Below, one piece after another: positions 10,538 to 30,873 of a DNA stretch of 64,000 nucleotides (position 1 is the first letter of the stretch; every line of letters starts with the position of its first letter). Below the pieces are notes generated by a model. The model had not been told where the DNA came from and ran no database searches. It saw only the letters and a program-made list of their open reading frames with translations. This DNA is from Pseudomonadota bacterium (lineage in GTDB: Bacteria; Desulfobacterota; Desulfobulbia; Desulfobulbales; SURF-16), in assembly GCA_018822545.1 (NCBI GenBank), contig JAHJKA010000051.1, positions 12,570 to 76,569 on the forward strand, read 5' to 3'. A program made the translations under genes and the position numbers.

Positions 10538-11443
10538 TTACCGCCCAAACACCTGAACCCGATTATTACCCTCATCGACAATGCACAGACGGCCCCAGGG
10601 ATCAAAAAGAATCTCCATGGGATAATAAAGGCTCTGCGGGCCATGGCCCTTATCAAGAAATCTGTATTTGAGCTTGGCCTTGCGATCCAGAACAATCACC
10701 TCGCCCTGATGCCGGTCGAGAATATAGACAAGACCACCGTTATCCAAGGCAAGGGCAACTGGAAACTTCACCAAGTCCGAGATATCTATCCGTTTCGTGA
10801 TTAAACCGTTGTCGCTATAGACATATAGGGTTTTTTCCTGTTGCCCCAAGGCCCATATCTGTTTGTCGACAATCTTGAAATCAACAATACCACCGCTGTT
10901 TTCCGGCAGAGGGAAGCGCTGCTCAATCTTAAAAGAATCCGACAGACGATATATCTGCCCGGTGGCCCTATCCAGAACATAGAGACTGCCCGCCGAGCTT
11001 TCAAGACGGTCGACCATGACTTGCCGCCCCTGATCCTGGACCACCACCCTCGTTGTTTCTTTGCTGGCAAAATCGATTTTGGTCAGGGAGTTTTTGCCCT
11101 TTTCAACAACAACCAGAACCGATTCATCCAGGCGAACCATGTCAAAAGGCTTAAGCAGGCCGCCCTCAGGGCTGAATGTTTTCTGGAAGGCGCCCTGGTC
11201 ATCAAAAGAGGCAAGCCGACCGCCGGCACTGTCCACCATATAATAGCGTTTCTTGTCACCATCCACATAGAGCGCTGTCGGCAAGGCGTCATGGAGGCTC
11301 TTGTCACTCAAAGTGAAGGCTAATTTCCAGGGGCTTGGAGCGTCCGTCGCCCGAACGTGACCGGGGATGGCCAGACAGAAAAGGAGAGCCACAACCCCGG
11401 CCACTGGCAGGGAACATCTTTTTACAATCCAGATGGTATCCAT
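10538..11443 (-). CDS. NHL-repeat beta-propeller protein
   Basis: Repeats ending ...PMEILFDPWGRLCIVDEGNNRVQVFGR. Signal peptide. ATG at 11443 with AGAGGA upstream (the ORF track's GTG is at 11458). Confidence 0.85.
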   Translation of the reverse strand: MDTIWIVKRCSLPVAGVVALLFCLAIPGHVRATDAPSPWKLAFTLSDKSLHDALPTALYVDGDKKRYYMVDSAGGRLASFDDQGAFQKTFSPEGGLLKPFDMVRLDESVLVVVEKGKNSLTKIDFASKETTRVVVQDQGRQVMVDRLESSAGSLYVLDRATGQIYRLSDSFKIEQRFPLPENSGGIVDFKIVDKQIWALGQQEKTLYVYSDNGLITKRIDISDLVKFPVALALDNGGLVYILDRHQGEVIVLDRKAKLKYRFLDKGHGPQSLYYPMEILFDPWGRLCIVDEGNNRVQVFGR

Positions 11444-11667
11444 TTTTTCCTCTAACACCTTTGACGGTAATATTTTTTAAGACCGGCACTCATTTCAGTA
11501 CCACCTCGGAGTCTAGCGCTTACCTGAGGGGTATAAGTGACTCGAAGGTCTCGCTTGCTCGCTATCTGGAGCTAACCAAAAGTAAGTAGTTCCCACAATG
11601 ATTCTCCAGTCTCTCGGAGTCTCGTCCCTCGCTTACCTTTTTTTCGCAAAGGTTAACGATTAAGTCA

Positions 11668-16380: not shown

Positions 16381-16970
16381 GCCAACAGCTCTTCTTCTTC
16401 CCATAACCCCAGAATTTCCTTCATCATCTTTTTGCCCAGCTCGCTTACCGTATTGCTCAGGCCAAAATGCATTAATTTTCGATAATCCGTACCCTGTTTC
16501 CCGTGATAGGTAGACCACAACAAGGTTCCATCCTTACCATTATAGACCTGGAGCTGGATTTTAAGGCGGGGATTAACTCGATCACCTTCCACCTGCTCCT
16601 CCATCTCCAAAATCTCGCCGCCAACCAGAAGATCAACCCCCAGGCGAGAAGCGATAATCTGCATCTGTTCCGGGTTGGGCTGGATCCAGGGTCTGAGCCG
16701 CAATTCCCGATAAATCCTCCGGATATCACCCTCCAGTGCCAGACGCCAAGGACGCTGAATGACCAGCTCGGCCATAATCACCCTGTACAATATCTTGTCG
16801 CCCTGACTGTATGCACTTCTGTTTATAAGGGGCAAAACCCCGACGCTACAGGCCTGGACAGGATACCTACTTGCAAACTGCTGAAGATGGGGGCGTTTCC
16901 CGGCGCAACCGCTCAGAGTAAAAAGGCAGCTAAGTGCCATGATCGTATAGATCAAAAATCTTCTACCCAT
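16368..16970 (-). CDS. Lipoprotein with an LpoB/FlgO/CsgG-like (TolB-N-like) domain
   Basis: Lipobox LFTLSGC. Motifs VGVLPLINRS... and LGVDLLVGGEI... are shared with the two neighbouring genes. Confidence 0.7.
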   Translation of the reverse strand: MGRRFLIYTIMALSCLFTLSGCAGKRPHLQQFASRYPVQACSVGVLPLINRSAYSQGDKILYRVIMAELVIQRPWRLALEGDIRRIYRELRLRPWIQPNPEQMQIIASRLGVDLLVGGEILEMEEQVEGDRVNPRLKIQLQVYNGKDGTLLWSTYHGKQGTDYRKLMHFGLSNTVSELGKKMMKEILGLWEEEELLACIN

Positions 16971-18469
16971 ATCTCCCTCAACGCCATCTTATTCACCTCT
17001 TTATCAGCAAAAAAATCGGATTCTCCTTCTGTTTTTTTCTCCTCCACAGGAACCAGGGCTGCCACATTGCGGCGCAGCCGGTTGCCCAGCATATCCTGAG
17101 CATAAAGGCGGTAACTCATGTTCTGGCCGGCAACAGCGGCAAGGGGCATCATAAGACTGCCGGTTGACTCGGTTCCACTGCTTTCCGAAATAATATCACC
17201 GTTCTGGTTCTGAATCTCAAGACGCCAATAGGCAAGGGGTATTTCACCATCATATTCCAGGTTCAGGGCCAGGCTGTTTTCCTGCTCTTTCATGGCCACT
17301 ACTATTTTGGGCTCCCGGCGTATCACCCGGATTGCTTCTTCAGCAAAAGCCTTGTTACCTGCCCTGTCCCAGACCGTAAGATTAATGGTATAAAAGCCAT
17401 CCCCCACCAGAGCACCATTTTTTGCTTGCCCCCACCATGAAAACCGATCTGGCAAACTGTCCCAGCCCTCATCATTCATGATTTCGACACCATCTTTATC
17501 GCGTACTGTCATCAACCAACGACTGATGGGTTCTGGATTTTTCATAAGGGGCACAATGGCCACATTTTTCTGGAGCACGACAATGCCATTAAGCTCCTGA
17601 CCTTTGAGCTGCAGAGTCAAGGCCGGTATCTGGTTATCAACAAGATAACTACCAATAAGCACCTCCTGGTTTGCAACACCAGGGCGAGAAATAGCTGCCA
17701 TTACAGGATAGCGCTCATTTTTGAGCGCAGCCGGCCACGATGCCACAAAACTGTTTTCATCTTCGTGATAGCTGGCCTCAATAATACGCTCATCAACATA
17801 CAAAGAGACTGAAGTATAAAAAAGGCTGGCCGGTAAGACTCCCAACTTGATGCGACAAAGAACCATATCACCAGGCTTTAAGATTTCAGGCCCCATTTCA
17901 ACCGACTCAATAGTCTCACGAATATCCAGGGGCCGACCATGTTGGAAATCAGCAGGAATGGTCAACAGCGCCCTGCGCACCACCATTTCCTCCATCTCAT
18001 CCATGTCCTGGGGCTGTGATAACCCCAACAGACCAATTTCATCGGCACCGGACAACTCAGTACTTTGCGCCCAGATTATCTGCGCGTCTCCGGTCCTGAT
18101 TAATTGCAAGGTGAGACCAAGGGCAAAGGGTTTCTTGACCCGCCGTTGATTCACTGAACCAAGAAGAAGATATTCAACACCAAGGTCATCATGAAGACGG
18201 CGGACATATTGACTGCCAAGATATCCAAGCCAGCGTACCCTATTTTTCACCATAAAGGTGATGACCTCATTTTGATCGGCCATGGCAAAACCCTTTGCCG
18301 CCATACCATCACTAAGCCGCTGGGTAATGGCAAGGTTCAAACCATTCCCCCCACGGCTCAAATCCTCCATGGGCATAACGGCAACCTTAACGCCCTGACT
18401 GAACCCGACATGGGGGTGCAGCGTGGTCAGCATCAAAAGCAGCAGTATGAAGGTTTTACGATAACGCAT
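16952..18469 (-). CDS. Secreted protein: N-terminal LpoB/CsgG-like domain plus C-terminal Ig-like (FlgD-Ig-type) domains
   Basis: Signal peptide. VAVMPMEDLS... and LGVEYLLLGSV... at the N-terminus. The C-terminal beta-rich segments GDGFYTINLTVWDRAGNKA and YRLYAQDMLGN are typical of Ig-like sandwich domains. Confidence 0.7.
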   Translation of the reverse strand: MRYRKTFILLLLMLTTLHPHVGFSQGVKVAVMPMEDLSRGGNGLNLAITQRLSDGMAAKGFAMADQNEVITFMVKNRVRWLGYLGSQYVRRLHDDLGVEYLLLGSVNQRRVKKPFALGLTLQLIRTGDAQIIWAQSTELSGADEIGLLGLSQPQDMDEMEEMVVRRALLTIPADFQHGRPLDIRETIESVEMGPEILKPGDMVLCRIKLGVLPASLFYTSVSLYVDERIIEASYHEDENSFVASWPAALKNERYPVMAAISRPGVANQEVLIGSYLVDNQIPALTLQLKGQELNGIVVLQKNVAIVPLMKNPEPISRWLMTVRDKDGVEIMNDEGWDSLPDRFSWWGQAKNGALVGDGFYTINLTVWDRAGNKAFAEEAIRVIRREPKIVVAMKEQENSLALNLEYDGEIPLAYWRLEIQNQNGDIISESSGTESTGSLMMPLAAVAGQNMSYRLYAQDMLGNRLRRNVAALVPVEEKKTEGESDFFADKEVNKMALREIWVEDF

Positions 18470-18485
18470 CGCCCTTATGGCAACC

Positions 18486-19055
18486 TCAATGGGGTATGGT
18501 GCTCAGTATTTTATCAACAAGGGCCAGCGTGAGCTCAAACGGCCCCACCGAGGCCAGGCCAAAGAGCCGGCGCCAGGCTGAATCGCCACTTTCATGACCG
18601 CTGGCCTGCCAGATCACCAGGCCGCTCTCCACCTCCAGCAGACGCATGGTTACTGATAATTCAGGATACACCACCGCCCCTTTCCGACCCTCGTCGGCAA
18701 GATCAATGGTGCCAAGCATGACAGCCTGGATATTAAGGCGCTGGCCTATGCGCCGCAGAGCCTGACGATCCAGGGGTTTGCCGGGATCAATGGCCTCCTC
18801 GTGGAGAAGACTATCCACCACCCCCTTGTCAATCACGTCAAAAAGCCCCCGGCCAAGAACCTGAGTCATGACGAGATTGCGAACCCGTTCCGGGGCATAT
18901 TCATCCTTGCTGTTATTTTCCAAGGGGAGAACAGCTATGCTTCTGACAAAACCAATATCAATATTTTCCCTGCTGAAACTTTCAAGCCCCCCCCTCATCG
19001 CACAACCAGATGCGCTTAAAGAGAGCAGCAGCAAGACTACAAATATTCTTTTCAT
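18486..19055 (-). CDS. Lipoprotein with an LpoB/FlgO/CsgG-like domain
   Basis: MKRIFVVLLLLSLSASGC lipobox, IAVLPLENNS..., LNIQAVMLGTI... The ORF track's upstream extension to 19286 translates a DNA repeat (RKARKPKRKARKPK) and is not credible. Confidence 0.75.
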   Translation of the reverse strand: MKRIFVVLLLLSLSASGCAMRGGLESFSRENIDIGFVRSIAVLPLENNSKDEYAPERVRNLVMTQVLGRGLFDVIDKGVVDSLLHEEAIDPGKPLDRQALRRIGQRLNIQAVMLGTIDLADEGRKGAVVYPELSVTMRLLEVESGLVIWQASGHESGDSAWRRLFGLASVGPFELTLALVDKILSTIPH

Positions 19056-19140
19056 AATTATATATGCCTCATCATTATATAGTACACCCTCATGAAACCG
19101 GAGGAGGGGTAAACTCTGCAGCCCCGTAAACCGATTTTTT

Positions 19141-19230
19141 GCCACGGAATCCACGGAACCCTCTGAAAAAACCTTTTTTGGTTTCCGTGCCTTCCGTTTT
19201 GGTTTCCGTGCCTTCCGTGGATTCCGTGGC
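19141..19230. repeat. Composite palindromic/tandem repeat element (CCGTGG-type)
   Basis: Perfect 18-bp inverted repeat GCCACGGAATCCACGGAA (19141-19158) / TTCCGTGGATTCCGTGGC (19213-19230). It encloses two tandem ~20-21-bp units GGTTTCCGTGCCTTCCGT.. (19180-19200, 19201-19220). Confidence 0.9.
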
Positions 19231-19298
19231 CAAACTGTAAAGGTACAACCTTGCCAACCAGCACACCATAGCCATTTCAGGTCCAAGCCGTTTCGCTG

Positions 19299-21395
19299 CT
19301 ACATAACAGAAAACCTGGCCACCAATTGCGACTGTACCAGCCACTCTTCCTCGCCCTGACTTTCAGAATAACTGCCATTGCCCTGGATGGTAAAATGGGG
19401 CCCCAGGGACCAGCTGCCAAATAGGGAATATTTATCAATGCGATTGATGGCTTTTGCGTAAATATAGTTCATGGAAAACTGGGTGGTATCTGTGGGAGCC
19501 AAAGAGAGCGAAACGCTAGCCCCTTCACTTTGGCTGTCACTGCCGAGCCACTCCTTGTTGCCGGACACATGCATCGACAGCATATCACTTGCCCGCCAGT
19601 TAATACTGAGATCAGCCCCGGTGGTCTCACTGCCGTCATCGCCCAAGGTGTGTTGATAATCCGTGGTCAGATCAGCGGTAACAGAGGGGACAAGACGGGC
19701 TGTCAGGGTAAGAATGGTGTGATAATTTCTGGTGGTTAGATCGGTGTCTTCTTGTTTGATCCAGCCATAGTTAAGATCAACACTGGCATCCAAATCAGGA
19801 TAGAGGGCTGCCGTGGTAAACAAGCCGACGTTATGATTGACCGACTGACGCTCTGAGCCCTCATATTCTTCAGACCTGGTAAGGCCCATATTGACATCAA
19901 CCGTATCCAGCGGGATGGCGTCCATATTCAGGGTATAGGAACGGCTGGAAGATTCGTCGGCATCGCCGTTCTGGGATTTCGACTCATTCACTCCCACCGT
20001 GGTGGTCAAGGCGGCAAGGGTCTGCCATGTGAGGTGCCCAGCCTGGCTGGAGCGGTCATACTCAACCCCAGAGCCATATTCACCGTTCTCAAAAGAGAGG
20101 TTATAGGTCAGGGTCAGAGTATCAGTCAACCGAGCGCCAAGGTTCAGATCGGTGATCATGCTGGACGAGGTGGAGGTGAGCTCTGCCTTATCCACGCCTG
20201 TGACTCGCTGATAGGCCTCAATTTCTGTAAAATCCACCGTGGTCAAGGGACTTGAGGTGATAACCAGTTTCAGCCACAGATTATTCAAGGCCGGAATGGG
20301 GAATTCAAAACGTTTTTCAGCGCTATTATAGCTGAAAGGCAGTGAGTTCGTACTCAGTTGCCAGTTGCTACCATTATCACTGGTATAGAGGGCAAAGGTG
20401 AAACTTGCAGCCACTGCGGCACGATCTACGGCGGTATACAGGTAGATCTCGTCAATGATCTTAAAATCCGTCTTCATGGCGATGCTATGGGGGGAGGGGA
20501 CATCAATGCCGTTGGTGGCCACAGAAGAGGCTGTGGTCAGATCACCATCATGGAGGGCAGCCACCGCGTTGAGCTCTCCAGCCGTAGTTATGGTTAAGGG
20601 GGCAACGTCGAGACCATGGAGAACCTGGGACAGGCTCTGACGAATCAGGGCAGAGCTTGTCGTGCCAAGGGCCGTAGTGGATTTCTCACGATTTTCGGAG
20701 AACTGGTTGGCAAAACCAAAGGTCAGGCGATTTTGCCACAAACTATGATCGGCCTCCAGGCGGGCAAAATTGCTGGTGCTATCGCTTTGCCGGTCAGTGG
20801 CGATGTTGTTATATTTGTTACGGTTGTAGTTAAAATAGGTTTTAAAAAGCTCAAAATCCCAGTCCAGGGCCACACTTTCATTTTTATTTTCACTATCGGT
20901 TAATCTCGGAGAATTATCATCCTCCTGAAAATCTTCACCGTAGGTGGTCCGCAGATTGGGCCAGAAACGCTTTTCCCAGGAACTGGCCCACACTGCCTCC
21001 CAACTTGCCCTCTTCTGATCGGCAGATATGGTATTACGCTGCTGACTGGCAGAGCCAAAAAGCTCAAAAACAAACAGATCGTTGCTAATGCCAAAACGCA
21101 TGCTGGGATCAACACTCTGGGTGTCGTACTCTTCACGCCAGCCCGAGCTGTAACGCATTGATTCCTGCAAAGACATCGCCTCAGTGACCTCCTGTTTCAG
21201 GTCCAGGGTGTAGGTTAAGAAATACTCATCAGTCGCAACCTCATCCTTACCATCACTGTGAGACCAGTTTGCCGTAAGATCCTGCCCACCTCCTGCTACC
21301 TGAGGCATAATGAGCACACAAAAAAGAAATGACAGAAGAACAACGGTGCGAGAATGTATGCCTTGCCTCATCTCCTCGTTATTTCCTTCTGTCAC
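19299..21395 (-). CDS. Large outer-membrane beta-barrel protein with an internal discoidin (F5/8 type C)-like domain
   Basis: Signal peptide. Long runs of alternating hydrophobic/polar residues at both ends. Central ALHDGDLTTASS...IDEIYLYTA...FALYTSDNGSNWQL...WLKLVITS...DFTEIEAYQ follows the discoidin pattern. Confidence 0.7.
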   Translation of the reverse strand: MTEGNNEEMRQGIHSRTVVLLSFLFCVLIMPQVAGGGQDLTANWSHSDGKDEVATDEYFLTYTLDLKQEVTEAMSLQESMRYSSGWREEYDTQSVDPSMRFGISNDLFVFELFGSASQQRNTISADQKRASWEAVWASSWEKRFWPNLRTTYGEDFQEDDNSPRLTDSENKNESVALDWDFELFKTYFNYNRNKYNNIATDRQSDSTSNFARLEADHSLWQNRLTFGFANQFSENREKSTTALGTTSSALIRQSLSQVLHGLDVAPLTITTAGELNAVAALHDGDLTTASSVATNGIDVPSPHSIAMKTDFKIIDEIYLYTAVDRAAVAASFTFALYTSDNGSNWQLSTNSLPFSYNSAEKRFEFPIPALNNLWLKLVITSSPLTTVDFTEIEAYQRVTGVDKAELTSTSSSMITDLNLGARLTDTLTLTYNLSFENGEYGSGVEYDRSSQAGHLTWQTLAALTTTVGVNESKSQNGDADESSSRSYTLNMDAIPLDTVDVNMGLTRSEEYEGSERQSVNHNVGLFTTAALYPDLDASVDLNYGWIKQEDTDLTTRNYHTILTLTARLVPSVTADLTTDYQHTLGDDGSETTGADLSINWRASDMLSMHVSGNKEWLGSDSQSEGASVSLSLAPTDTTQFSMNYIYAKAINRIDKYSLFGSWSLGPHFTIQGNGSYSESQGEEEWLVQSQLVARFSVM

Positions 21396-21449: not shown

Positions 21450-23207
21450 CTATCTGCTCGGTTTAATCTGGGGTTTATTCCGATCATAGGACTTTGGAGC
21501 ATGGCAGCCCACAACGCAGGTGGCGCCATTCTTGTCTTTGGTTATCGAAATCGGATACGACCAGGCACCAAAAGGCACCTCCGTGCGGATATGTTTCGCC
21601 TGGGTACTGACATGGGGATCATGGCAGGCGATACAACTGCGCCCCTTCTTCATGTTAACATGGAAATAATGGAGGTTGTATTCACCGTCCCTGAAATTGG
21701 TAAGGGTCTTGGTGAATTTCTTCTTGGCGATATCCTTATTATGACAGCCGAAACAGAGCTCATAATTCTCCGGCCGATACTCCATGTAGAATTCCTCCGG
21801 GAAATACTTGGAGAGTATCCGGGTGTTATTGGAACCATGAACATCGTGGCAGGCCATACAGTCACCTGTCTGCACAGGGCCATGACGAAACTGGCTACCT
21901 GCGACCTCGTCGGCCAATTCATCATGGCAGGTGAAACAGAGCTCTTCGGTATTCTTCTTCAGCATGGATTTCACATCGGAAGAATGAGCCCGATGGCAAT
22001 CGGTACAACGCCCCTTCTCCACCGGCTCATGCTTGAATTTTGAATTCTTGATGGCATCATAGAGCTTGGGGCTCTTCTTCTCGTGACAGTCGGCACAGAG
22101 CTGCCCCCCCTCCTTGTGGAGTTGGAAGCGGTTGTCCGAGCTGTGGGGATCATGACATTTATTACAATCATCCTGCACCGGGGCATGCACATACTTCATG
22201 GAAAATTCCTGCTGGCGATCCTTATGGCACTGAAAGCAGACCTCGCCCTTTTCCGGTGAGGCGATCAGCAGACTTTTATACTTGCCGGCATGGGGTCTGT
22301 GGCAGGCGATACAGTCACCGGAGCCCACCGGCCCATGACGATGGCTCTTGGTAAAGATCTTGGATTCATGGCAGTTAAAACAGAGGCTGCTGACACTGGC
22401 GCCATTCCCCCGGAGTTGAAAACGCATGGCAGACTCATGGGGGTTATGGCAGGAAATACAACCCTCGGTAACCGGCTTATGGATGACGCTGTCTTTAAAT
22501 TCTTCAATCTTGGCCTGATGGCAGACCACACATAAATCCTGACCGGTACGGGCAATGGCCATGGCATTATAGGAACCGTGTGGGTTATGGCAGGAAATAC
22601 AGACACCGGCCCCCACGGGGCCATGGACATGCGCGCTCTTGCCCATATCGCTATGACAGCCGCCGGTGGTACAGTTGGCCTTGGCCGGGACATTCCGCTT
22701 GAAATTAAATATACCCCGTTTCAGCTTATGGCATTCCTTGCAGTCGAGTTCGGCAGGATTAGCATGGACATAGAAGCGTTTCAGGCCCGAAGGAGCAGCC
22801 TTGCCCTTTCTCAGGGCTTCAGATTCCAGATAATAGACATGAACTGTTTTCTGTTGCTTGCCGTCGGAGAGAACGATTTCATTATTTCCCTTATCAAGGG
22901 TAATCATGACACCAAAGGCCTGGTTTTCGACCTTGATCTTGCTTTTGGGGGCGTTATTTTTAACGCCCTTGATCTCCAGCTGGGTAACGGTGGTTTCACT
23001 GACAATACCCGCTAAAAAAAGCGCCTTTTCCGTGACCCAGACATTATCGGGGGGAGAAACCACGGTAATAACATTAGCCGCCAAGGCATGACCAGCACCG
23101 ACAGAGAGCAACCCACCCATCAGCAATATAACGGTCACAACAACAGACAACATGCCGATCTGTCTTGAACTTTGCTTCACTCCTTTCAACGTCTCTCCTC
23201 CAAACAT
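21450..23207 (-). CDS. Multiheme c-type cytochrome (14 CxxCH + CX4CH + CX3CH) with an N-terminal Ig-like domain
   Basis: 14 canonical motifs plus CTTGGCH and CVVGCH. TM/signal MLSVVVTVILLMGGLL. The start is uncertain: the ORF is open to 23318, and the ATG at 23207 has GGGGGAA upstream. Confidence 0.88.
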   Translation of the reverse strand: MFGGETLKGVKQSSRQIGMLSVVVTVILLMGGLLSVGAGHALAANVITVVSPPDNVWVTEKALFLAGIVSETTVTQLEIKGVKNNAPKSKIKVENQAFGVMITLDKGNNEIVLSDGKQQKTVHVYYLESEALRKGKAAPSGLKRFYVHANPAELDCKECHKLKRGIFNFKRNVPAKANCTTGGCHSDMGKSAHVHGPVGAGVCISCHNPHGSYNAMAIARTGQDLCVVCHQAKIEEFKDSVIHKPVTEGCISCHNPHESAMRFQLRGNGASVSSLCFNCHESKIFTKSHRHGPVGSGDCIACHRPHAGKYKSLLIASPEKGEVCFQCHKDRQQEFSMKYVHAPVQDDCNKCHDPHSSDNRFQLHKEGGQLCADCHEKKSPKLYDAIKNSKFKHEPVEKGRCTDCHRAHSSDVKSMLKKNTEELCFTCHDELADEVAGSQFRHGPVQTGDCMACHDVHGSNNTRILSKYFPEEFYMEYRPENYELCFGCHNKDIAKKKFTKTLTNFRDGEYNLHYFHVNMKKGRSCIACHDPHVSTQAKHIRTEVPFGAWSYPISITKDKNGATCVVGCHAPKSYDRNKPQIKPSR

Positions 23208-23395
23208 GTTTCCCCCATTCATCAAGCCGCCATGATCATGGCAAGCAGCGTGACAACCTCGACGTTCAGCAAGGGCACGAAGATTTAAAGCATTCGTGAT
23301 CTTGCTGAATCCCGACATGTAAAAAAAGCTGCAGGAGCACTAAGCGCAGACTCCGACTTCGCTCCCACAGCTTATACTAACCAGCATACACGAAA

Positions 23396-23436
23396 ACACC
23401 GCATCGGCCCATAAACTCTGAGCCGTTGCGGTGTTC
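23396..23436 (-). terminator. Candidate (leaky) intrinsic terminator after OmcS-like paralogue 2
   Basis: On the minus strand, AACACCGCAACGGC / GCCGATGCGGTGTT form a 14-bp stem with one mismatch, followed by TTTTCG. It lies in the 146-nt gap between 23465 and 23318. Confidence 0.5.
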
Positions 23437-23464
23437 ATTACCAAGACGTTACCCTGTCTTGCTG

Positions 23465-24631
23465 TTATACATCATCCTTCGTGGTATGACATGCAAAGCA
23501 GCCACTGGTATTTGAGCCGGCATGGGCATCCATCCCAGAGTAATCCCAGCGCAGCAAGTCAGCGTTTGGTGAGCCATGGGCCCGATGGCAGGAGATACAG
23601 GTCACAACCGCATTTCCGTTAGCAGATCCGGCACCACCGATGTAGTCGATGGCTGTCACGATGGTTGCGCCACTCAAGGTGACCGAAGCAACCGGAGCCT
23701 CAAGATTGTAGGCGGTATAACCGGCATACTCCGAGGTTGTGGCCAAAGCACTCATGTCAAAATCCGTAGGGTGCCGTACCCATGGAGAACCAAAGGTGCT
23801 GCTGCTGATATTGCCTGCACCGTTATGGAACGCACCGTGACATTGCGCACAGAGTGAGCTGATTGTCGACGTGGTGTTCGTTGCCTCATCAGAACGGGCA
23901 ACCCCGGAGTAGAGGTTATGATCAGCAGTTGCTTTTGTGGCATCAGCTGTATACTCCCAGTCAGCATCCTCGATGCCGGTAATACCAGACAGCATACGGA
24001 AGGCATCGGACATATCAGTGGTGGAGCCGGCAACATAGCCGTTGGTGGCAGCATTGCCTGGGCCATGATGACCGCCGGCGATGGCGCCGAACTCATCCGT
24101 CGAAGTCGCTGCCCTGTCACCATGACAACCGGTGACACCGGCGCAGGTCAGAGCGGAAGGAAGAGGAACATTAGCGGCACCACCATTGCCAGGTGCAGAC
24201 GTAAGGGTGCTTTCAAGATTTGCAGAAGGAAGGCCAATTACATTATGCCCTGATGCATCGTTACCAGCATTGACCCAATAGAAGTTACCACCAGCCAAGG
24301 TATTCACACCAGCAGCACCGGCCACACCATAGGTGGGCGCAGCAGTACCCAATACAAAAGGCACCGTGCCACCAGCATTATCACCGGTATGACAACCCAC
24401 ACAACCATAACGAAGCAGCGCACCATTTGGCGTATTATCGGCAACAATTGCCGCACCAAAGGCGCCAGTGCTGGCCATAGCCGTACCATCCTGGCTATTA
24501 TGCATGGTATGACAGTTACCACACGGGCCGCTGACCTTGGCTGCTGCCAGTGACGGCAGGGCGAAGGCTGCACTGATGGCAATGACCGCTATCAGCTTGT
24601 TTTTGTCCACATATCTCTTCATCGTTTTCAT
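23465..24631 (-). CDS. OmcS-family hexaheme c-type cytochrome (paralogue 2), first gene of the train
   Basis: CGNCHTMHNS, AGGNFYWV, SGHNVIG, CAQCHGAFHN...WVRHPTD, TCISCHRAHGSPNAD, CFACHTTKD. Five CxxCH plus CAGVTGCH. Signal peptide ending SLAAA. Confidence 0.88.
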   Translation of the reverse strand: MKTMKRYVDKNKLIAVIAISAAFALPSLAAAKVSGPCGNCHTMHNSQDGTAMASTGAFGAAIVADNTPNGALLRYGCVGCHTGDNAGGTVPFVLGTAAPTYGVAGAAGVNTLAGGNFYWVNAGNDASGHNVIGLPSANLESTLTSAPGNGGAANVPLPSALTCAGVTGCHGDRAATSTDEFGAIAGGHHGPGNAATNGYVAGSTTDMSDAFRMLSGITGIEDADWEYTADATKATADHNLYSGVARSDEATNTTSTISSLCAQCHGAFHNGAGNISSSTFGSPWVRHPTDFDMSALATTSEYAGYTAYNLEAPVASVTLSGATIVTAIDYIGGAGSANGNAVVTCISCHRAHGSPNADLLRWDYSGMDAHAGSNTSGCFACHTTKDDV

Positions 24632-24880
24632 CCTCCCTAATTCGGTTTTCCTTACACTTTGGGGGAACCCTCTCCTCTCTCAAAAGAAGGTCTCTCGCCT
24701 CTAAATAGCAGCCGATTTCAGCGTGGCGGCTTCGACTGCCCATGCTCTGTCTCCGTTTTTTTCAGCCCCGGAAACAGCACCCTCATCTATTATGATATAA
24801 CACTCACCAGCAGAGGGCAACCCTCACACCTTCTTCTTCACTCCATAAATCCACAAAGAAGGCCGTATGTATTTTAAACA

Positions 24881-24895
24881 GCAAGGGCCATGCCA
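24881..24895 (-). promoter_or_regulatory. sigma54 (-24/-12) promoter
   Basis: The minus strand reads TGGCATGGCCCTTGC(TG). GG and GC are at consensus spacing against TGGCAC-N5-TTGCW. About 250 nt upstream of the ATG at 24631. Confidence 0.75.
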
Positions 24896-25088
24896 AAACA
24901 AGATTCCAAAAAAGAAAGTGAAACTAAACCCGCCAACCCAGACCGTTAGGGCTCTTCTCTCTCCCCAATGCCCGCACTCGAAAAACTCTGCGGCCATTCG
25001 CCTCACCAGAAACTGACCACCAGGGTGATCAACTCCGGCGCACACCCGTCTGCCGAGGACAAGAAAAGCCAAAAAAAAGAGCCCCATC

Positions 25089-25132
25089 GTCGAAAAATGG
25101 CGAGAAATGCACACTTTTCACCATTTTTCGAC
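25089..25132. promoter_or_regulatory. Perfect 12-bp inverted repeat, candidate activator site or terminator stem
   Basis: GTCGAAAAATGG (25089-25100), N20, CCATTTTTCGAC (25121-25132). About 200 bp upstream of the sigma54 promoter and about 100 bp downstream of the activator gene stop. Confidence 0.3.
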
Positions 25133-25236
25133 CCCCGACAGGACGTGGCACCAAAATTAGACGCGAGAAAACCTACACCACCCTCCGCCGCCAGCTTCTG
25201 ATTTCTATCCACCAGAAACTGGTCAAAAACCAAGGC

Positions 25237-26583
25237 TTATTGGCAGCGGTTGACAATATTATAGTCAGAAATTTTCTTGCGCAGGGTGGTGGGGGAAATC
25301 TCCAGCTGTTTAGCGGTCTGGGTGATATTCCAGCGCTGCTGATTCAAGACCATTTCCACGTGGCGTTTTTCCGCCTCAGCCAGGGTAACTGGCGCCACCT
25401 GCACTGGACCTTCATGATCGCGGTGGGATTGCTCAAGACATACCTCGGCAGCGGTGAGTACGCTGTCGGTGGCCAGGGCCACCGATCGCGTCAGAACATT
25501 TTCCAGCTCACGAACGTTCCCGGGCCAAGTGTGACTGATCAGTTTCTGCATGGCCTCATCATTAATCATCGGCCGGGAACATTGGAGCTGGCGGGCAATT
25601 TTTTTCAACAGTGAATCAACAAGTTGGGGAATATCACCCGGCCTGTCGCGCAACGGCGGCAGGTAGAGAGTGGAAACGGCAATACGATAAAAAAGATCTT
25701 TTCTGAACTTGCCTTCCTTGACCAGCTTTTCAAGATCCCAATGGGTGGCTGAGACAAAACGGGCCCGGAAAGGAATGGTCTCAAGGCCGCCCACCCGGAC
25801 AAACTCTCCCTCCTGGAGAACGCGCAGGAGCTTCCCTTGCAACCCTAAAGGCATGTCGCCGATCTCGTCAAAAAAAACCGTGCCATCCGCGGCATACTCT
25901 AATTTGCCTATTTTCAGGCGATCAGCCCCGGTAAACGCCCCTTTTTCATGGCCAAAGAACTCTGACTCAAGCAGGGTGGAAACCACGGCCGAGCAGTTGA
26001 TGTCAACAAAGGGCTTATCCGGGTCACGGGCATCATGAAGAATCCGGGCCGCAAGCTCCTTACCTGTGCCGCTTTCCCCCTGGATAAGGACAGTTACCCG
26101 GCTGCGTGAAAGCAGGCCTATTTTCTTATGGAGATCAATAATGTCGGGATGGGTACCTATCATGTTGGGGTAATGATCATCCACAACCAAGGACCCTATC
26201 TGGTCAGGCAAATTTACCTCGTGGCCGCGATGCACTTCCACCCGGGACAACATGGTATAGATGTCATCAAGCTCCAAAGGCTTGCGAAGATAATCAAAGG
26301 CGCCACTGCGCATGGCCTGCACAGCAATAAAATTGTCTGATTCACCCGTCATGATGACCACGGTGGGGTCGCAGGGCAACTCGACAATACTGGGCAAGGC
26401 CTCCAACCCGCTCTGGCCAGGAAGATTAATGTCGAGAAACACCACATCCGGCCGGAATTCTGCAGCCTCGCCAATGCCATTCTCAGCAGAACTTGCCAGA
26501 TGCACCTCATGGCCCTTCAGACCGAGGGGAACCTGGAGGGAGCGGCAAAGCGCCTGATCATCATCAACAATGAGAATTTTCAT
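25237..26583 (-). CDS. NtrC-family sigma54-dependent response regulator (REC-AAA+-Fis HTH)
   Basis: MKILIVDDD...VFLDINLPG (REC), GESGTGKE (Walker A), GAFTGA, C-terminal ITQTAKQLEISPTTLRKKI. Confidence 0.93.
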   Translation of the reverse strand: MKILIVDDDQALCRSLQVPLGLKGHEVHLASSAENGIGEAAEFRPDVVFLDINLPGQSGLEALPSIVELPCDPTVVIMTGESDNFIAVQAMRSGAFDYLRKPLELDDIYTMLSRVEVHRGHEVNLPDQIGSLVVDDHYPNMIGTHPDIIDLHKKIGLLSRSRVTVLIQGESGTGKELAARILHDARDPDKPFVDINCSAVVSTLLESEFFGHEKGAFTGADRLKIGKLEYAADGTVFFDEIGDMPLGLQGKLLRVLQEGEFVRVGGLETIPFRARFVSATHWDLEKLVKEGKFRKDLFYRIAVSTLYLPPLRDRPGDIPQLVDSLLKKIARQLQCSRPMINDEAMQKLISHTWPGNVRELENVLTRSVALATDSVLTAAEVCLEQSHRDHEGPVQVAPVTLAEAEKRHVEMVLNQQRWNITQTAKQLEISPTTLRKKISDYNIVNRCQ

Positions 26584-26924
26584 TGGGGGTCACCCGTAAT
26601 AAGTAGTAACAATATCTCTCTCTCCAACACCCGGAACACAGGATGTCCTAAAATTGCATTGAGGTTCAACATGCTTGAAACTGTACAGAAACTTGTTGAC
26701 TTGGTCAATGTTTGACGATTTTCTCAACTTACGCTACACATCTGTTGCGTGAAAAAACTTCATTTCAAGCACTTACCCGCCACTTTCCATTTGACAGCAG
26801 GGAATGCTATCAGGTAAGAGGGTAAGCAATGGAAAACCTCTCTCAACCATGATTTGCTTTGCAAGTTATGTTCCATTATGCCCACCCCTCCCACCTCTCC
26901 TCACATGCTCACCGTAGCAGAATT

Positions 26925-27053: not shown

Positions 27054-27068
27054 TGGCCCAAAATTTGC
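27054..27068 (+). promoter_or_regulatory. sigma54 (-24/-12) promoter
   Basis: TGGCCCAAAATTTGC(TT), with GG and GC at consensus spacing. About 210 nt upstream of the ATG at 27279. Confidence 0.6.
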
Positions 27069-27278
27069 TTTTTTTAATGTAATTTTATACTCTTAAGAAC
27101 AAGGATCTTAATCTCGACAGCATCAGGAAGATCCAGAAATCTTTATGAAAAGGGCAAGATTGCAGCAAAGAATTGTTAACCGGCATGGTCCTACCATCAG
27201 TTTGCCAAAGAAATAACAGCGACTGTCAAAGACACGCCAGCCTCAAGATTGACCGGTACTCAACGAAGGGATGATTCT

Positions 27279-28316
27279 ATGAATGTTCGCATCTTCTGTA
27301 AAATACTGTCACTGACTATTCTTCTTTCTCTCTACACCTTTCTTTCCTCAGGCGTAGCCGAGTCTTTTCCTTTTCGGACGCTTTCCGTGGGTGAGCCAAT
27401 CCCCGATGTCACCCTTGTCAAGGCCGCTGACAATAGTAAATTGTCCCTGCATGAACTCAAGGGGGCACCGGCAGTTCTTGTCTTTTGGGGGGGCGATCTG
27501 GCCGCCAAGAAAAAAAGATCCATCACCGCCCTCGCCGAATTGCAGGCCCTCCTGCCCTTTTTTACTGAAAAAAATGTCGCCCTCAAAGCAATCAACGCCC
27601 AGGGTGACACAGACGCCACCATTGCTGAAATTGTCCAGGCCTCGGGCTTTACCGCCCCGATTTATCTGGATTCGGCCCAACAGGCCTACGGCGCCTTAGG
27701 AATTTTTATCATGCCATCCGTCCTGATTCTTGACAAAAACGGCATTACCGTGGCCGGCATGGGCTACAGCAAGGACATGACAGCCACCCTCAAAGGTGAA
27801 ATTGAGATTCTCCTGGGCGAGAAATCCCGCGCCCAGGTGGAAGCTGAACTGAGTCCGGTGATGGTGGATAAATCCCCTGAAGAAAAAGAAGGTAACCGCC
27901 GCCTGGGCATGGGTCATGCTATGGCCCTCAAAGGGCAGCTTGAGGCGGCTGAACGCGAATACCAGGCCGCCCTGGCAAGCAACCCTCAACTGGCCGAGGC
28001 CCATGTGGAACTCGGCTGCCTCTATTACCAACTTGGCAAAATTGCCGAGGCCCAGAAAAGTCTTGATACCGGTCTCGGCATTGATTCCAGCTCCCTGCGC
28101 GGTGAAATTTGCGCTGCCCAGGTTACTGCGGCCCAAGGTGATGTCGACACCGCCCTTGACGACCTGAAGGCCATGCTTTTTCGCAACGGCCGTAATGCAG
28201 AACTCCATTATGTGCTGGGCACCTTGTATGAAAAAAAGGAAAATCACAGCTTGGCAGCCAAGGAGTTTCGCAAATCCTATGAACTCCTGAGCCGAAGCGC
28301 CAATTTCGAAGAGTAA
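27279..28316 (+). CDS. Periplasmic thioredoxin-fold (TlpA/redoxin-like, no CxxC) plus TPR-repeat protein
   Basis: Signal peptide. LKGAPAVLVFWGGDLAAKKKRS sits where redoxins carry WCxxC. The C-terminal half has TPR-like repeats (AEAHVELGCLYYQLGKIAEAQKSL...). ATG at 27279 has AAGGGA upstream. Confidence 0.75.
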   Translation: MNVRIFCKILSLTILLSLYTFLSSGVAESFPFRTLSVGEPIPDVTLVKAADNSKLSLHELKGAPAVLVFWGGDLAAKKKRSITALAELQALLPFFTEKNVALKAINAQGDTDATIAEIVQASGFTAPIYLDSAQQAYGALGIFIMPSVLILDKNGITVAGMGYSKDMTATLKGEIEILLGEKSRAQVEAELSPVMVDKSPEEKEGNRRLGMGHAMALKGQLEAAEREYQAALASNPQLAEAHVELGCLYYQLGKIAEAQKSLDTGLGIDSSSLRGEICAAQVTAAQGDVDTALDDLKAMLFRNGRNAELHYVLGTLYEKKENHSLAAKEFRKSYELLSRSANFEE

Positions 28317-28407
28317 CGCTATCAAAGAAATCCTCTGGCGGAACGGTAAAACATGCCTCTCTCTCCCCACAACCGCCCCACGCACACCCCATGACCAAGG
28401 TTCGCTT

Positions 28408-29586
28408 ATGAAAAGTTTGACAAACATTTCCCCTCGAGGATGCCTGTCGTTGGTCGGCAGACAAAGTACCATCTTTGCCTGCTGGCTCATCATTGGCCTC
28501 AGTCTCCAGTTTCCCCAGGGAAATGCCTGGGCGGCACCGGAAATCCTGGTGCCGCCTGCAGCAGCAACCATCTATGCCCGTCAGCCCACGACCCACCTGG
28601 TCGTCCGGCAGCAGCAAAACGACAGCATAAGCCGGACACGGGTGCGCAAGGACGATTTGCTCTTCTCGCCCCAGGGTATCTGGCAAGCAAAAAATGGTGA
28701 GTATTACCTCCACTTTCGCCTGCCCCTGATTCCGGGCAAAAACTCCTTTGAGCTCATCCCCTCAGGCAAAAATGTCGTGATCAAGTACCGACCTTTACGC
28801 TCCCTGCTCAACGTCAATTTTAACGAAAAAGGGGTCTCTCTCTTCCACCGCAACGAGCTGCTGCCCGCCTCCTGCAAGGAGTGCCACCACGCAAAACCGG
28901 CCCAGCCAACCAGACCCATTGACGAGCAGGCCCAGCCTCTCTGTTTTGAATGCCATAAAAACATCGTTGAGAATAACTGGAAACACAGCCCAGCCGCCAC
29001 CCTGCAATGCCGAGCCTGTCATCAGGAGACCACTGACCCCAACAAAATCACCATCCCGGTGGGCAAGGTGGAAACCAGCTGTTTCCAGTGCCATGTCAGC
29101 AAAAAAGCTTGGCTGAAGATGGAACATATCCACGGCCCGGTGGGTACCGGCGACTGCACGGTCTGCCACAACCCCCACGCCGACCAGAATCGTGCCCAGC
29201 TCTGGGCAGCTGGCAAGGATGTAATCTGCGTGGCCTGCCATACGGACAAAAAAGACCTGCTTGCTGAAGACAGCTCCACCTATTACATCCACGGCATCAT
29301 CAAGGGCGGCGGCTGCATTGCCTGTCACAGTCCCCATGCCACCGATCACCGTTTTCAGCTTTATAAACCAATTAATGATCTGTGCGTGGGTTGTCACACC
29401 GCCTTTAAAGATGTGGTCAAGGGCCACCCGGTTGGTGGTCACCCAGTACAAGGGGTCAAAGATCCACGCCGACCGGAAAGGACCTTTTCCTGTACCAGTT
29501 GCCACAACCCCCATGGCTCAGATTATAAGTTCCTGCTCATCGGCGATATTCTCGGCGGTCAGGTATGCAGTCAATGCCACTATTAA
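28408..29586 (+). CDS. Decaheme c-type cytochrome with an N-terminal beta-rich domain
   Basis: CKECH, CFECH, CRACH, CFQCH, CTVCH, CVACH, CIACH, CVGCH, CTSCH, CSQCH. Signal peptide. Architecture resembles the 21450 gene. Confidence 0.9.
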   Translation: MKSLTNISPRGCLSLVGRQSTIFACWLIIGLSLQFPQGNAWAAPEILVPPAAATIYARQPTTHLVVRQQQNDSISRTRVRKDDLLFSPQGIWQAKNGEYYLHFRLPLIPGKNSFELIPSGKNVVIKYRPLRSLLNVNFNEKGVSLFHRNELLPASCKECHHAKPAQPTRPIDEQAQPLCFECHKNIVENNWKHSPAATLQCRACHQETTDPNKITIPVGKVETSCFQCHVSKKAWLKMEHIHGPVGTGDCTVCHNPHADQNRAQLWAAGKDVICVACHTDKKDLLAEDSSTYYIHGIIKGGGCIACHSPHATDHRFQLYKPINDLCVGCHTAFKDVVKGHPVGGHPVQGVKDPRRPERTFSCTSCHNPHGSDYKFLLIGDILGGQVCSQCHY

Positions 29587-29598
29587 TCAACAGGCGCG

Positions 29599-30873
29599 AT
29601 GATGGCTTTTAACAAAAAACACAATACGGCCTGGAAACTTGCAGCTTTCTGGCTCCTCTTTGTGGTGCTGGCCTGGCACCTTGGTTCTCCATTGGCCCAA
29701 GAAAAACCAGCTCCTGTGGAAGAGCAGAAACCTGCTACGCCCCGTGAGGTCATGCGCCTGGTCACCATTCTCAACCAGGATGATCGAGGCAAACCCCTGC
29801 GTTTCCCCATCAACATCTCGGCAGAGAATGACCAGGAAGAAATCTACGTTATTAACGGCGGCCAGGGCAACATCCTCATCTACGGCCGGGATTTTTTCCC
29901 CCATCTTGTCCTGGGGGCCGGTCGGGGAATTGACAGCCCGCAATGCATCTTCTTTGACATGGAGCATGGCAAGGTCTTCATCGGCCAGAATCACACGGCC
30001 CAGAACCCCAGCAGGCTGACCATCTTAAATGCCGCCTTCCTGCCGGAAAAAGAAGTGACGTTCACAGCCATGCCCGATGGGGAGAAATTTTCCATCACCA
30101 ACGGCATGGTGGGTAAAAACGGCAAGCTTTACCTGATTGGCAACCAGAGCCGTGGTGCCCTGGTTCTTGATGCCGAGGGCAAGTTCTCCCACTGGCTCAA
30201 ACCCATGGATAAGATTTTCCTGGACGCGCCGGTGAAAACCTCAGACAGCACCGAGGAGAGACTGGAGTATCTTGCCGAGCTCCAAAAAAATACCGCTGCC
30301 CCCCCAGAGGAAGTCTCGGCCGTGCCAGAAGGATTACCCGCTGAACTGCTGCCAAAATCACGGGGCACCATCCCCACAGATAAGGAAAAGGGCAAAGATC
30401 TTCAGCCCGTCCTCCTCCATGACATTGCCATTGACAGTGACGGCCGCATCTTTCTGCTCAGCGAAGAGACCAGCAAAGTTTATGTCTATGGTCCCGGGGA
30501 AAACTTCCTCTTTTCCTTTGGCCAGAAGGGTGGCTCATCGGGCAAGATGAGCCGCCCCAGAGGACTTTGTCTCGATGAGAAGAAAAAATGCATCTACATC
30601 GTTGACTACATGCGGCACACCATCTTGACCTTTGACATGGCTGGGCGCTTCATTTTTGAGTTCGGGGGTAGGGGCACAGGAGCGCTGTGGTTCAACTTCC
30701 CCACGGCTATTGATGTCGATCGTCAAGGGCGGCTGCTTATTGCCGATCTTTTTAATAACCGGGTGCAAATCCTGGAGAGCGATTTTACCATCAGTTATCC
30801 GGTGTTCGGTAACACCAAGGGTCTGCCGCCTAAACAGAAAGACACCAGCAGAGATGAACCCGCGCAGCCCTAA
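29599..30873 (+). CDS. NHL-repeat beta-propeller protein
   Basis: ...RPRGLCLDEKKKCIYIVDYMRHTILTFD..., FPTAIDVDRQGRLLIADLFNNRVQILE. Signal peptide. Confidence 0.85.
   Translation: MMAFNKKHNTAWKLAAFWLLFVVLAWHLGSPLAQEKPAPVEEQKPATPREVMRLVTILNQDDRGKPLRFPINISAENDQEEIYVINGGQGNILIYGRDFFPHLVLGAGRGIDSPQCIFFDMEHGKVFIGQNHTAQNPSRLTILNAAFLPEKEVTFTAMPDGEKFSITNGMVGKNGKLYLIGNQSRGALVLDAEGKFSHWLKPMDKIFLDAPVKTSDSTEERLEYLAELQKNTAAPPEEVSAVPEGLPAELLPKSRGTIPTDKEKGKDLQPVLLHDIAIDSDGRIFLLSEETSKVYVYGPGENFLFSFGQKGGSSGKMSRPRGLCLDEKKKCIYIVDYMRHTILTFDMAGRFIFEFGGRGTGALWFNFPTAIDVDRQGRLLIADLFNNRVQILESDFTISYPVFGNTKGLPPKQKDTSRDEPAQP

Follow-up and report, generated by a model that had tools for sequence, protein, structure and literature searches.

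What kind of protein does the first gene of a long multihaem cytochrome train encode in this 64-kb stretch of DNA (the window), and what do the hairpins between that gene and the rest of the train do? An earlier note on this DNA had proposed an OmcS-type filament subunit, made in excess over its machinery. The analysis makes it probable that the head gene encodes a Sec-exported six-haem cytochrome, leading an osc/oet-type cluster whose transcription is driven by sigma54 and attenuated by terminators. Both the clade of this protein and the type of cluster have already been described, in papers of 2023-2025. The features are collected in Table 1; coordinates of the machinery (10538-21395) are those of the listed ORFs, which overlap where a listed start is probably upstream of the true start.

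Table 1. Features of the head gene, its control region and the downstream train, in order of transcription
Feature	Coordinates	Strand	Basis or remark
NtrC-type sigma54-dependent response regulator (receiver, AAA+ sigma54-interaction, Fis HTH), directly upstream of head gene	25237-26583	(-)	Pfam Sigma54_activat 3.9e-59, Response_reg, HTH_8
sigma54 (-24/-12) promoter TGGCATggcccTTGCT	24880-24895	(-)	exact consensus TGGCAT-N5-TTGCT
Long leader (5', about 250 nt) containing conserved blocks; SD GGGAGG (24632-24637) at its end	24623-24879	(-)	alignment of 9 relatives
Head gene, OmcS-family cytochrome CDS	23465-24622	(-)	385 aa, start ATG 24622
Sec signal peptide MKRYVDKNKLIAVIAISAAFALPSLAAA / KVSG	24539-24622	(-)	read from sequence; cleavage site inferred
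CGNCHTMHNS block, haem-1 motif and His44	24494-24523	(-)	aligned to OmcS C9-S18
CAGVTGCH, CX5CH haem-3 motif, sister-clade signature	24122-24145	(-)	best-hit counts
Hairpin H1 (10+7 bp), then UUUU (23390-23393); putative conserved terminator/attenuator	23394-23436	(-)	fold and covariation
Hairpin H2 (23327-23372) with U7 (23320-23326), canonical intrinsic terminator	23320-23372	(-)	fold
Hairpin H3 in leader of next gene, conserved structure, no T-tract	23267-23307	(-)	RNAalifold, 6 relatives
Next gene, 579-aa multihaem cytochrome, 14 CXXCH and 2 CX3-5CH	21450-23189	(-)	probable TTG start behind GGAGGAG
698-aa OscE/OetI-like protein (BB698)	19299-21395	(-)	tblastn to 718-aa OscE position of Geobacter omcS locus, 4e-14
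LpoB-like lipoprotein	18486-19286	(-)	tblastn to OscF position, 4e-14
505-aa protein	16952-18469	(-)	Pfam, synteny
200-aa lipoprotein	16368-16970	(-)	Pfam, synteny
PPIase	14746-16518	(-)	Pfam, synteny
26-haem cytochrome	12831-14780	(-)	Pfam, haem count
16-haem cytochrome	11668-12831	(-)	Pfam, haem count
NHL propeller	10538-11458	(-)	Pfam, synteny
Tail paralogue, 362 aa, 41.7% identical to head protein	9440-10528	(-)	no terminator after; next gene 5 nt on
Distal genes: 8-haem cytochrome, YNCE-type beta-propeller (OscD-like), 5-haem cytochrome, 172-aa protein	4939-9434	(-)	Pfam

The head gene is present as the ORF that the earlier note had claimed, 388 aa from the first ATG at 24631 (23465-24631, minus strand). 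Its true start is likely the second ATG, because of the spacing from the Shine-Dalgarno sequence and because one relative (L075) lacks the first ATG in an alignment of the upstream regions of nine relatives. The N-terminal block of the protein reads ...KVSGPCGNCHTMHNS, and A31, V33 and G35 are nearly invariant among 50 homologues. Five CXXCH motifs (CGNCH37, CVGCH77, CAQCH261, CISCH345 and CFACH378) are accompanied by one motif of the form CX5CH, not CXXCH (CAGVTGCH163-170). Codon usage carries no mark of high expression (ENC 53, the sole oddity being a T3/GGT preference), and codon bias was dropped as uninformative about the expression of this gene. In public records, proteins of the family go by the names "hypothetical" or "cytochrome c3 family".

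The head gene encodes an OmcS-family hexahaem c-type cytochrome. The similarity claimed by the earlier note survives real alignment: BLASTP pairs the head protein with OmcS colinearly over query residues 37-363 (E 3e-10; OmcS reference sequence checked against 6ef8_A), a profile of 50 homologues matches OmcS alone in the PDB (E 3.3e-26), and hhalign against the Geobacter OmcS clade returns 99.84% probability over 304 columns. The profile search was needed because single-sequence phmmer against the PDB missed OmcS at E <= 10, its top match being 7lq5_A (0.016). Pfam and NCBIfam gave generic paired-CXXCH/c7 matches for the head protein and nothing more. An initial AF2 run with 50 sequences (pLDDT 58.7) produced no Foldseek match; the model became confident because Geobacter clade sequences were added (147 sequences, haem-free; pLDDT 86.4, pTM 0.85), and 6ef8_A is then its single PDB match in Foldseek (E 1.4e-5, probability 1.00, TM 0.42). 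By sequence profile and by fold alike, OmcS is the sole PDB relative of the head protein.

Geobacter sulfurreducens OmcS (GSU2504; PDB 6EF8/6NEF) and the head protein, about 27% identical, share six colinear haem sites, and every sequence block claimed for the pair does align: CxxCHTMHNS, GG(N/D)F.WV (GGNFYWV/GGDFGWV), GHN(V/I) (GHNV/GHNIV), CxxCH...RHP (more fully CxxCH..(F/I)HN..RHP), CxSCHRAH (extending to CxSCHRAHxS) and the terminal CxxCHxxKD. Ten histidines conserved in the OmcS clade fall on invariant histidines of the head-gene clade, including the pair His16/His44. The haem sites follow the OmcS order, with the variant motif at the haem-3 position: the head clade carries CX5CH (CAG[TV]xGCH) where OmcS carries CSSCH, while the first cysteine and the column of the following histidine, aligned to OmcS His147, are common to both. 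The CX5CH form is found in 119/120 best hits of the head protein and in 0/120 best hits of Geobacter OmcS. The best explanation is that the head protein belongs to a sister clade of Geobacter OmcS, distributed in Desulfobulbales/Desulfurivibrionaceae and including DA_765, DA_756 and DA_402 of Desulfurivibrio alkaliphilus. In the Nature 2025 paper (PMC12545173), these three have five CXXCH motifs, or six if CX2-5CH is counted. The sister clade also differs from OmcS in having no counterpart of His2 and His144, in its own invariant His188, His189, His238 and His269, and in lacking some 45 residues before haem 6, some 15 after GGDFGW and part of the N-terminal arm. In OmcS, the missing segments are part of the subunit interface or close to it.

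Upstream, the claim of a promoter-proximal position behind a sigma54 promoter is borne out. The site TGGCATggcccTTGCT is the sole exact match to the sigma54 consensus within the 64-kb window, where one-mismatch matches occur at chance level, and YGGCAYG-N4-TTGCT is kept at the same place in nine relatives. Relatives, too, have the gene for an NtrC-type activator ahead of the head gene, as Geobacter has it ahead of omcS; there, omcS likewise comes first in its cluster, behind the sigma54 activator gene. Driven by the adjacent activator, this promoter would start transcription of the cluster.

The train led by the head gene has 16 genes and is homologous to the osc (omcS-companion) / oet cluster of Geobacter. 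About 25 MAG loci keep the order of its genes, with distal synteny in L023 and L024; relatives have the next gene called at 563-579 aa, with a conserved SD/start block. Judged from gene content, the train is an osc/oet-type OmcS-companion cluster, with a porin-like protein, an LpoB-like lipoprotein, a PPIase, giant multihaem cytochromes and beta-propeller/NHL proteins; the giant cytochromes are best explained as periplasmic, and the PPIase as a chaperone. By tblastn, the Geobacter OscD (propeller), OscE (about 700 aa) and OscF (LpoB-like) positions have homologues in the window, OscD being matched by the YNCE-type propeller Prop494 at 2e-8. From their positions, the PPIase PPI590 may correspond to OscH and the 505-aa protein to OscG. 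Unlike Geobacter osc, the window has no OscB (spermine-synthase-like) gene, and its OmcS-like paralogues stand apart, one at the head of the train and one at its tail, whereas those of Geobacter are adjacent. Geobacter, too, has a canonical terminator ahead of oscB, but it comes after omcS-omcT and not after omcS itself. The Geobacter osc names go back to Shen et al. 2025 by way of the summary in PMC13194489; an oetABI plus OmcS-like/OmcX cassette of syntrophic SRB has been reported in Desulfobulbia (PMC10553843). The ORF at 11668-12831 (387 aa), of similar length to the head protein, was ruled out as a paralogue: it is a 16-haem paired-CXXCH cytochrome.

The gap 3' of the head gene is strongly structured (fold z = -5.5, with 0/200 shuffles equally stable). 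The hairpin proposed there, at 23396-23436 with a 14-bp stem, is real and conserved with covariation, but it spans 23394-23436 and has 17 pairs in two helices. Across eight relatives, pairing holds in 94.8% of the H1 cells, while slid controls reach 54% at most, and three pairs show double changes. The idea that the hairpin is peculiar to the head gene also stands: a hairpin of dG <= -26 kcal/mol with a T-run follows the head gene in 12/12 cases, against 2/14 for the tail paralogue (dG <= -15), and at none of the 12 head loci is the hairpin weaker than -28 kcal/mol. Two further elements had been overlooked, namely H2, which with its U7 is the stronger terminator, and H3. Second hairpins with T-runs, analogous to H2, occur in L074 and L075, and RNAalifold on six relatives gives H3 19 pairs, six of them with compensatory double changes. 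The gap itself, put at 146 nt in the earlier note, is probably about 275 nt, because the next gene most likely starts at TTG 23189. H1 was not found as a dispersed or repeated element; Rfam had no match in the window, nor in 23100-25300 with H3 included; a consensus terminator scanner missed both H1 and H2. No other gap of the train is structured, the large one at 11459-11667 having no significant structure. With a stem-loop and a U-tract after the stop codon, and compensatory change in H1 (8 sequences), H1 and H2 are both predicted intrinsic terminators. Since the U-tract of H1 is short and partly paired, three of its four U being drawn into the stem, H1 could be weak or have some other purpose.

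Directly 3' of the stop codon, H1 with its short U-tract and then H2 with its U7 would stop most transcripts. A read-through minority would carry the machinery genes, placing the cytochrome message some two orders of magnitude above theirs. Operons are familiar in which the gene for the major subunit comes first and is set off from the rest by a terminator inside the operon or by unequal mRNA stability, as with papA of pap pili. There, as would be the case in the window, a stem-loop behind the structural subunit gene lowers expression of the downstream assembly genes; the proteins and the secretion route are unrelated, and the likeness is functional only.

The ratio of head to downstream transcripts, proposed earlier as a check, can be read from a relative, D. 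alkaliphilus. There the genes from DA_765 to DA_755 agree in order, sizes and haem counts with those from the head gene to the 8-haem gene of the window, save for one additional gene in the window, for a 579-aa cytochrome, after the head gene and ahead of the porin-like one. Judging from gene order, sizes and haem counts, DA_765 would correspond by position to the head gene and DA_756 to the tail paralogue. In the RNA-seq data of PMC12545173, DA_765 stands at 13832/1113/4777 RPKM and the distal genes at 41/13/39 (DA_758), 34/13/36 (DA_756) and 36/13/28 (DA_755), all of them induced by ferrihydrite and near 1-7 with nitrate. DA_765 is thus at 85-340 times the level of DA_758/756/755. The paper treats DA_765 (gc3) and DA_755-758 (gc2) as separate clusters, and in the passages covered it does not discuss terminators or osc homology. 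The hairpins would be the cause of this expression step. It is conceivable, but unlikely, that termination is complete and that the downstream cluster is its own transcription unit with an unrecognised promoter, the head gene being a monocistronic neighbour. H2 with U7 is indeed a strong canonical terminator, and a 275-nt gap with the conserved H3 could house a promoter or operator; yet no sigma54 or sigma70 consensus was found in that gap, the order of head gene and cluster is kept over wide divergence, and in D. alkaliphilus the distal genes share the induction pattern of the head-gene counterpart at about the 1% level, as read-through predicts. The hairpins might alternatively act mainly as 3' stabilisers after processing, with the head segment outliving the rest by differential mRNA decay, as in the papBA and puf operons. 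The outer stem of H1 is conserved far beyond what a generic terminator needs, its U-tract is short, and H3 could protect the 5' end of a downstream fragment; but H2 and the hairpins of L007, L011, L013 and L018 have the long U-tracts typical of true intrinsic terminators, and this explanation, too, appears improbable as the main one, although decay and termination are not mutually exclusive.

Whether the abundant product is a filament subunit is a separate matter. The neighbour-derived ligand of haem 5 in OmcS is reportedly His16, to which His44 of the head protein corresponds. One ligand of this haem in the OmcS filament does come from the neighbouring subunit (Filman 2019). The earlier note was right that both paralogues of the window retain the histidine (CHTMHNS in head and tail), but its use as a major-subunit signature fails: the residue is invariant in 147/147 family sequences of both clades and recurs in OmcT and OscC of Geobacter as well as in the tail paralogue, itself weakly placed, and therefore discriminates nothing and marks no major subunit. 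By analogy with OmcS, the head protein may nonetheless be extracellular and form a head-to-tail polymer in which His44 ligates haem 5 of its neighbour; on polymerisation we regard the case as evenly poised. A possible reading, though one we rather doubt, is that the head protein is an abundant cytochrome of OmcS type that does not polymerise, a monomeric outer-surface or periplasmic carrier that feeds or caps a conduit, its high expression reflecting stoichiometric need and not polymer building. OmcT and OscC possess every motif, the His16 block included, and we know of no report of filaments made by either. OmcS has C-terminal and N-terminal segments that the head clade is without, and the TM score of the head protein to OmcS is just 0.42. 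In PMC12545173, DA_765 is predicted periplasmic by PSORTb/DeepLocPro (Table S3), whereas the clade is predicted extracellular and an AF2 oligomer of its member DA_402 is reported to polymerise. Against a mere carrier stand also the invariance of His44 over 147 sequences and the conserved linkage to homologues of osc genes, which have been proposed to serve OmcS nanowire folding and secretion. It is very unlikely, finally, that the tail paralogue is the actual OmcS equivalent and the head gene a different accessory cytochrome: the tail scores better against Geobacter OmcS (9e-20 versus 3.5e-10 for the head), but the two proteins fall in one CX5CH sister clade, the tail gene is tightly packed among machinery genes with no terminator, and its presumed counterpart DA_756 stands at 34 RPKM against 13832 for DA_765.

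What the window displays is the whole unit: activator, sigma54 promoter, leader, head gene, tandem terminators, machinery train and second paralogue. Tandem terminators would account, simply and at the level of sequence, for the roughly 100-fold step in expression published for D. alkaliphilus. Speculatively, and with considerable doubt on our part, the CX5CH sister clade might build a structurally distinct haem wire, with other haem-3 ligation and a shortened interface, and a conserved module of three RNA hairpins (H1, a second terminator that varies, and H3 with its covariation) might constitute a regulated attenuator or antiterminator, not a passive terminator, tuning the ratio of subunit to machinery in Desulfobulbales. 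Filament-forming paralogues cannot be picked out by the His16 equivalent. No molecular basis for long-range extracellular electron transfer is better supported than OmcS-type cytochromes, and the OmcS sister clade in Desulfurivibrionaceae has recently been linked to a metabolism that couples the oxidation of sulfide to the respiration of iron oxide.

The head gene, an OmcS-like cytochrome gene at the front of a long same-strand train, is followed by a conserved terminator module. The 152 nt 3′ of its stop codon fold with a z-score of −5.5, and 0 of 200 shuffles were as stable. Of the three RNA hairpins downstream of the gene, H1 (10 + 7 pairs, then UUUU) is the one that the earlier note had described, and it is both real and conserved: 94.8% of cells are paired in eight relatives, against at most 54% in slid controls, with double changes at three pairs in the same alignment. 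H1 as a dispersed repeat was ruled out. It forms a tandem pair with H2, a 46-nt hairpin 20 nt further on that the earlier note missed; with its U7 tract, H2 has the canonical form of an intrinsic terminator. Second hairpins analogous to H2 occur in L074 and L075, two loci of relatives, while the more distant relatives L007, L011, L013, and L018 carry canonical but unrelated terminators at this position. In all, 12 of 12 head genes possess, at most 160 nt 3′ of the stop codon, a hairpin of dG ≤ −26 kcal/mol with a T-run, whereas among the 14 tail paralogues just two have a 3′ hairpin that reaches dG −15 kcal/mol. Behind the window's own tail paralogue, folding detected no structure (z = 0.24), and the next gene begins 5 nt later. 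Geobacter differs in that its canonical terminator lies 3′ of omcT, the hairpin after omcS having no U-tract.

The third hairpin, H3, comprises 19 pairs without a U-tract, exhibits compensatory double changes at 6 pairs among six sequences of relatives, and has no Rfam match. It sits in the leader of the second train gene, which encodes a 579-aa cytochrome, within the N-terminal extension of the listed ORF. The upstream ATG of that ORF is probably the wrong start. A conserved GGAGGAG-N5-TTG yields 579 aa that include a normal signal peptide, fits the 563–579 aa of relatives' gene calls, and most likely marks the true start.

Coordinates of features in and around the head-gene train
Feature	Position	Strand	Remark
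Head ORF	23465-24631	−	388 aa encoded
Head gene	23465-24622	−	ATG 24622, most likely start; 385 aa
Haem-3 site	24122-24145	−	CX5CH
H1	23394-23436
H2	23327-23372	−	23320-23372 with U7
H3	23267-23307	−	outer helix to ~23258-23315
Second train gene, listed ORF	21450-23318	−	ATG 23318, probably wrong
Second train gene, start	23189	−	TTG, most likely
Train	24622 down to 4939	−	16 genes
Tail paralogue	9440-10528	−
Genes beyond train	2451-4156	−
Sigma54 promoter	24880-24895	−	TGGCATggcccTTGCT
5′ leader	24623-24879	−	~250 nt
Sigma54-like site	26860-26875	−	one mismatch
Sigma54-like site	27054-27069	+	one mismatch
Divergent gene set	27249-30873	+
Signalling block	31406-56070	+
Second sigma54 activator	35918-38068

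The start of the head gene itself is most likely the second ATG, because the first directly abuts the Shine-Dalgarno sequence GGGAGG and L075 lacks the first while keeping the second. The N-terminus reads as a Sec signal peptide ending LAAA|KVSG, followed by five CXXCH motifs and one CX5CH (CGNCH, CVGCH, CAGVTGCH, CAQCH, CISCH, and CFACH). Codon use differs from that of the neighbors, with T at third positions at 0.40 versus 0.18–0.35 elsewhere, GGT favored over GGC, and a GC3 of 0.50; as the ENC of 53 is not low, there is no clear evidence of translational selection.

Pfam and NCBIfam return only generic paired-CXXCH/c7 signals for the head protein. After the OmcS reference was checked against PDB 6ef8_A, BLASTP aligned residues 37–363 colinearly with OmcS 9–346 (27% identity, E 3e-10), and all the OmcS sequence blocks named in the earlier note align. 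A phmmer search of the PDB with the single head sequence did not find OmcS; OmcS is the sole PDB match of a 50-homologue profile (E 3.3e-26), and profile–profile comparison with 34 Geobacter OmcS-clade members gave a probability of 99.84% over 304 columns. An AF2 model from a shallow alignment was of no use. With 147 sequences, AF2 yielded a model (pLDDT 86.4, pTM 0.85) whose single Foldseek match in the PDB was 6ef8_A (prob 1.00, TM 0.42). Five CXXCH plus CAG[TV]xGCH recur in 119 of the 120 best database matches of the head protein, and CX5CH in 0 of the 120 best matches of OmcS. This CX5CH is the haem-3 site, here and in homologues: the first Cys is shared with OmcS, the second is moved three residues, and the proximal His aligns with the OmcS His147 column. 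Ten His columns are conserved across both clades, whereas OmcS His2 and His144 have no counterpart in the head-gene clade, His188, His189, His238, and His269 are invariant in that clade only, and ~45 residues before haem 6 are absent from it. The head protein is a member of a clade distinct from, and sister to, OmcS. This clade has been published: the OmcS-like proteins of Desulfurivibrionaceae were placed next to OmcS as its sister group, and an AF2 oligomer of one of them, Desulfurivibrio alkaliphilus DA_402, was reported to be a filament (PMC12545173). The spellings CX5CH and CXXXXXCH were not found in the literature searched, though that study counts CX2-5CH motifs. Some MAG loci (L028, L031, L035, L044, and L045) hold two to four tandem clade paralogues with no adjoining machinery genes, which suggests repeated local family expansion.

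The inter-protomer histidine, which the earlier note took for a major-subunit signature, does not discriminate between paralogues. The haem-5 ligand from the neighboring OmcS subunit is reportedly His16, as Wang and colleagues are said to have found in 2019. Its equivalent, His44, is invariant (147/147 sequences) and also present in Geobacter OmcT, OscC, and the tail paralogue of the window, and is therefore a family constant rather than a major-subunit marker. In OmcS, 11 of 12 axial His come from the own subunit and one, on haem 5, from the neighbor (Filman et al.). Putative polymerization of the head protein is plausible, the balance being even.

Large gaps occur at only two places in the train: 275 nt separate the head gene from its successor, and 209 nt precede the NHL gene. 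In order, the train encodes the head protein, the 579-aa cytochrome (14 CXXCH and 2 longer motifs), a 698-aa protein, an LpoB-like lipoprotein, a 505-aa protein, a 200-aa lipoprotein, a PPIase, a 26-haem and a 16-haem cytochrome, an NHL protein, the OmcS-like tail paralogue (41.7% identical to the head protein), an 8-haem cytochrome, a YNCE-type propeller, a 5-haem cytochrome, and a 172-aa protein. Beyond the train lie genes for a GGGtGRT-family protein (Pfam 1.5e-192) and a weakly NifU_N-like protein. The train order recurs in ~25 MAG loci of Desulfobulbaceae, Desulfurivibrionaceae, and other Thermodesulfobacteriota. The Geobacter locus, retrieved via the OmcS cluster representative, comprises a sigma54 response regulator, omcS, omcT, a 1017-aa protein, an OmcS-like gene, then a YNCE propeller, a 718-aa protein, and an LpoB-like lipoprotein; the corresponding window proteins match at 4e-14 (698-aa), 4e-14 (LpoB-like), and 2e-8 (propeller). 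In PMC13194489, which cites Shen et al. 2025, the Geobacter companion genes are called the osc (omcS companion) operon and are proposed to act in folding, secretion, and morphology. An oetABI plus OmcS-like cassette, occurring in Desulfobulbia, has also been described (PMC10553843).

Upstream, TGGCATggcccTTGCT is the sole exact −24/−12 (sigma54) match in the 64-kb window, one-mismatch matches occurring at chance level. YGGCAYG-N4-TTGCT is kept in nine relatives, 160–334 nt 5′ of the start, and an NtrC-type activator gene lies immediately upstream. The leader is unusually long, and relatives share several of its sequence blocks, among them GGCAGTCGAAGCCGCC...CGGCTGCC and CCTTCTTTTGAGAGAGGAGAGGG. 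Two sigma54-like sites flank the activator gene, one 5′ of it and the other 5′ of a divergent set. In that set a TPR-redoxin (AhpC/TSA) gene, which L074 and L075 keep in synteny, is accompanied by genes for a 392-aa multihaem cytochrome and an NHL protein. Further on is a dense signalling block with PAS-GGDEF, several PAS histidine kinases, hybrid kinases, a second sigma54 activator, and two response-regulator HD-GYP-type (HD_5) proteins.

Expression data come from D. alkaliphilus, whose DA_765–DA_755 genes are all on the −1 strand. DA_765 (OmcS-like, 5 CXXCH, 906476-907516) is followed by an 8.8-kb stretch with room for six genes, then by DA_758 (16 haems), DA_757 (hypothetical, 321 aa), DA_756 (OmcS-like), and DA_755 (8 haems). 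Apart from the 579-aa gene, which L011 also lacks, the order, sizes, and haem pattern are those of the window train, and on this basis we infer that the genes correspond.

RPKM of D. alkaliphilus genes in five conditions (PMC12545173 Table S3)
Gene	FeS+ferrihydrite	sulfide+ferrihydrite	formate+ferrihydrite	nitrate	S0
DA_765	13832	1113	4777	7	272
DA_758	41	13	39	1	2
DA_756	34	13	36	1	2
DA_755	36	13	28	1	2

By these values DA_765 stands 85–340× above the other three, and all four are co-induced, the pattern that leaky termination from one promoter would predict. Conservation, together with this indirect RNA-seq of a relative, supports the proposal that the arrangement over-produces a subunit. 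The original observation is confirmed and extended. Earlier publications already cover the clade, the companion cluster, and the clade's induction on iron oxide. The present analysis makes two modest additions: the terminator module conserved behind head genes, and hairpin H3 in the leader of the second train gene.
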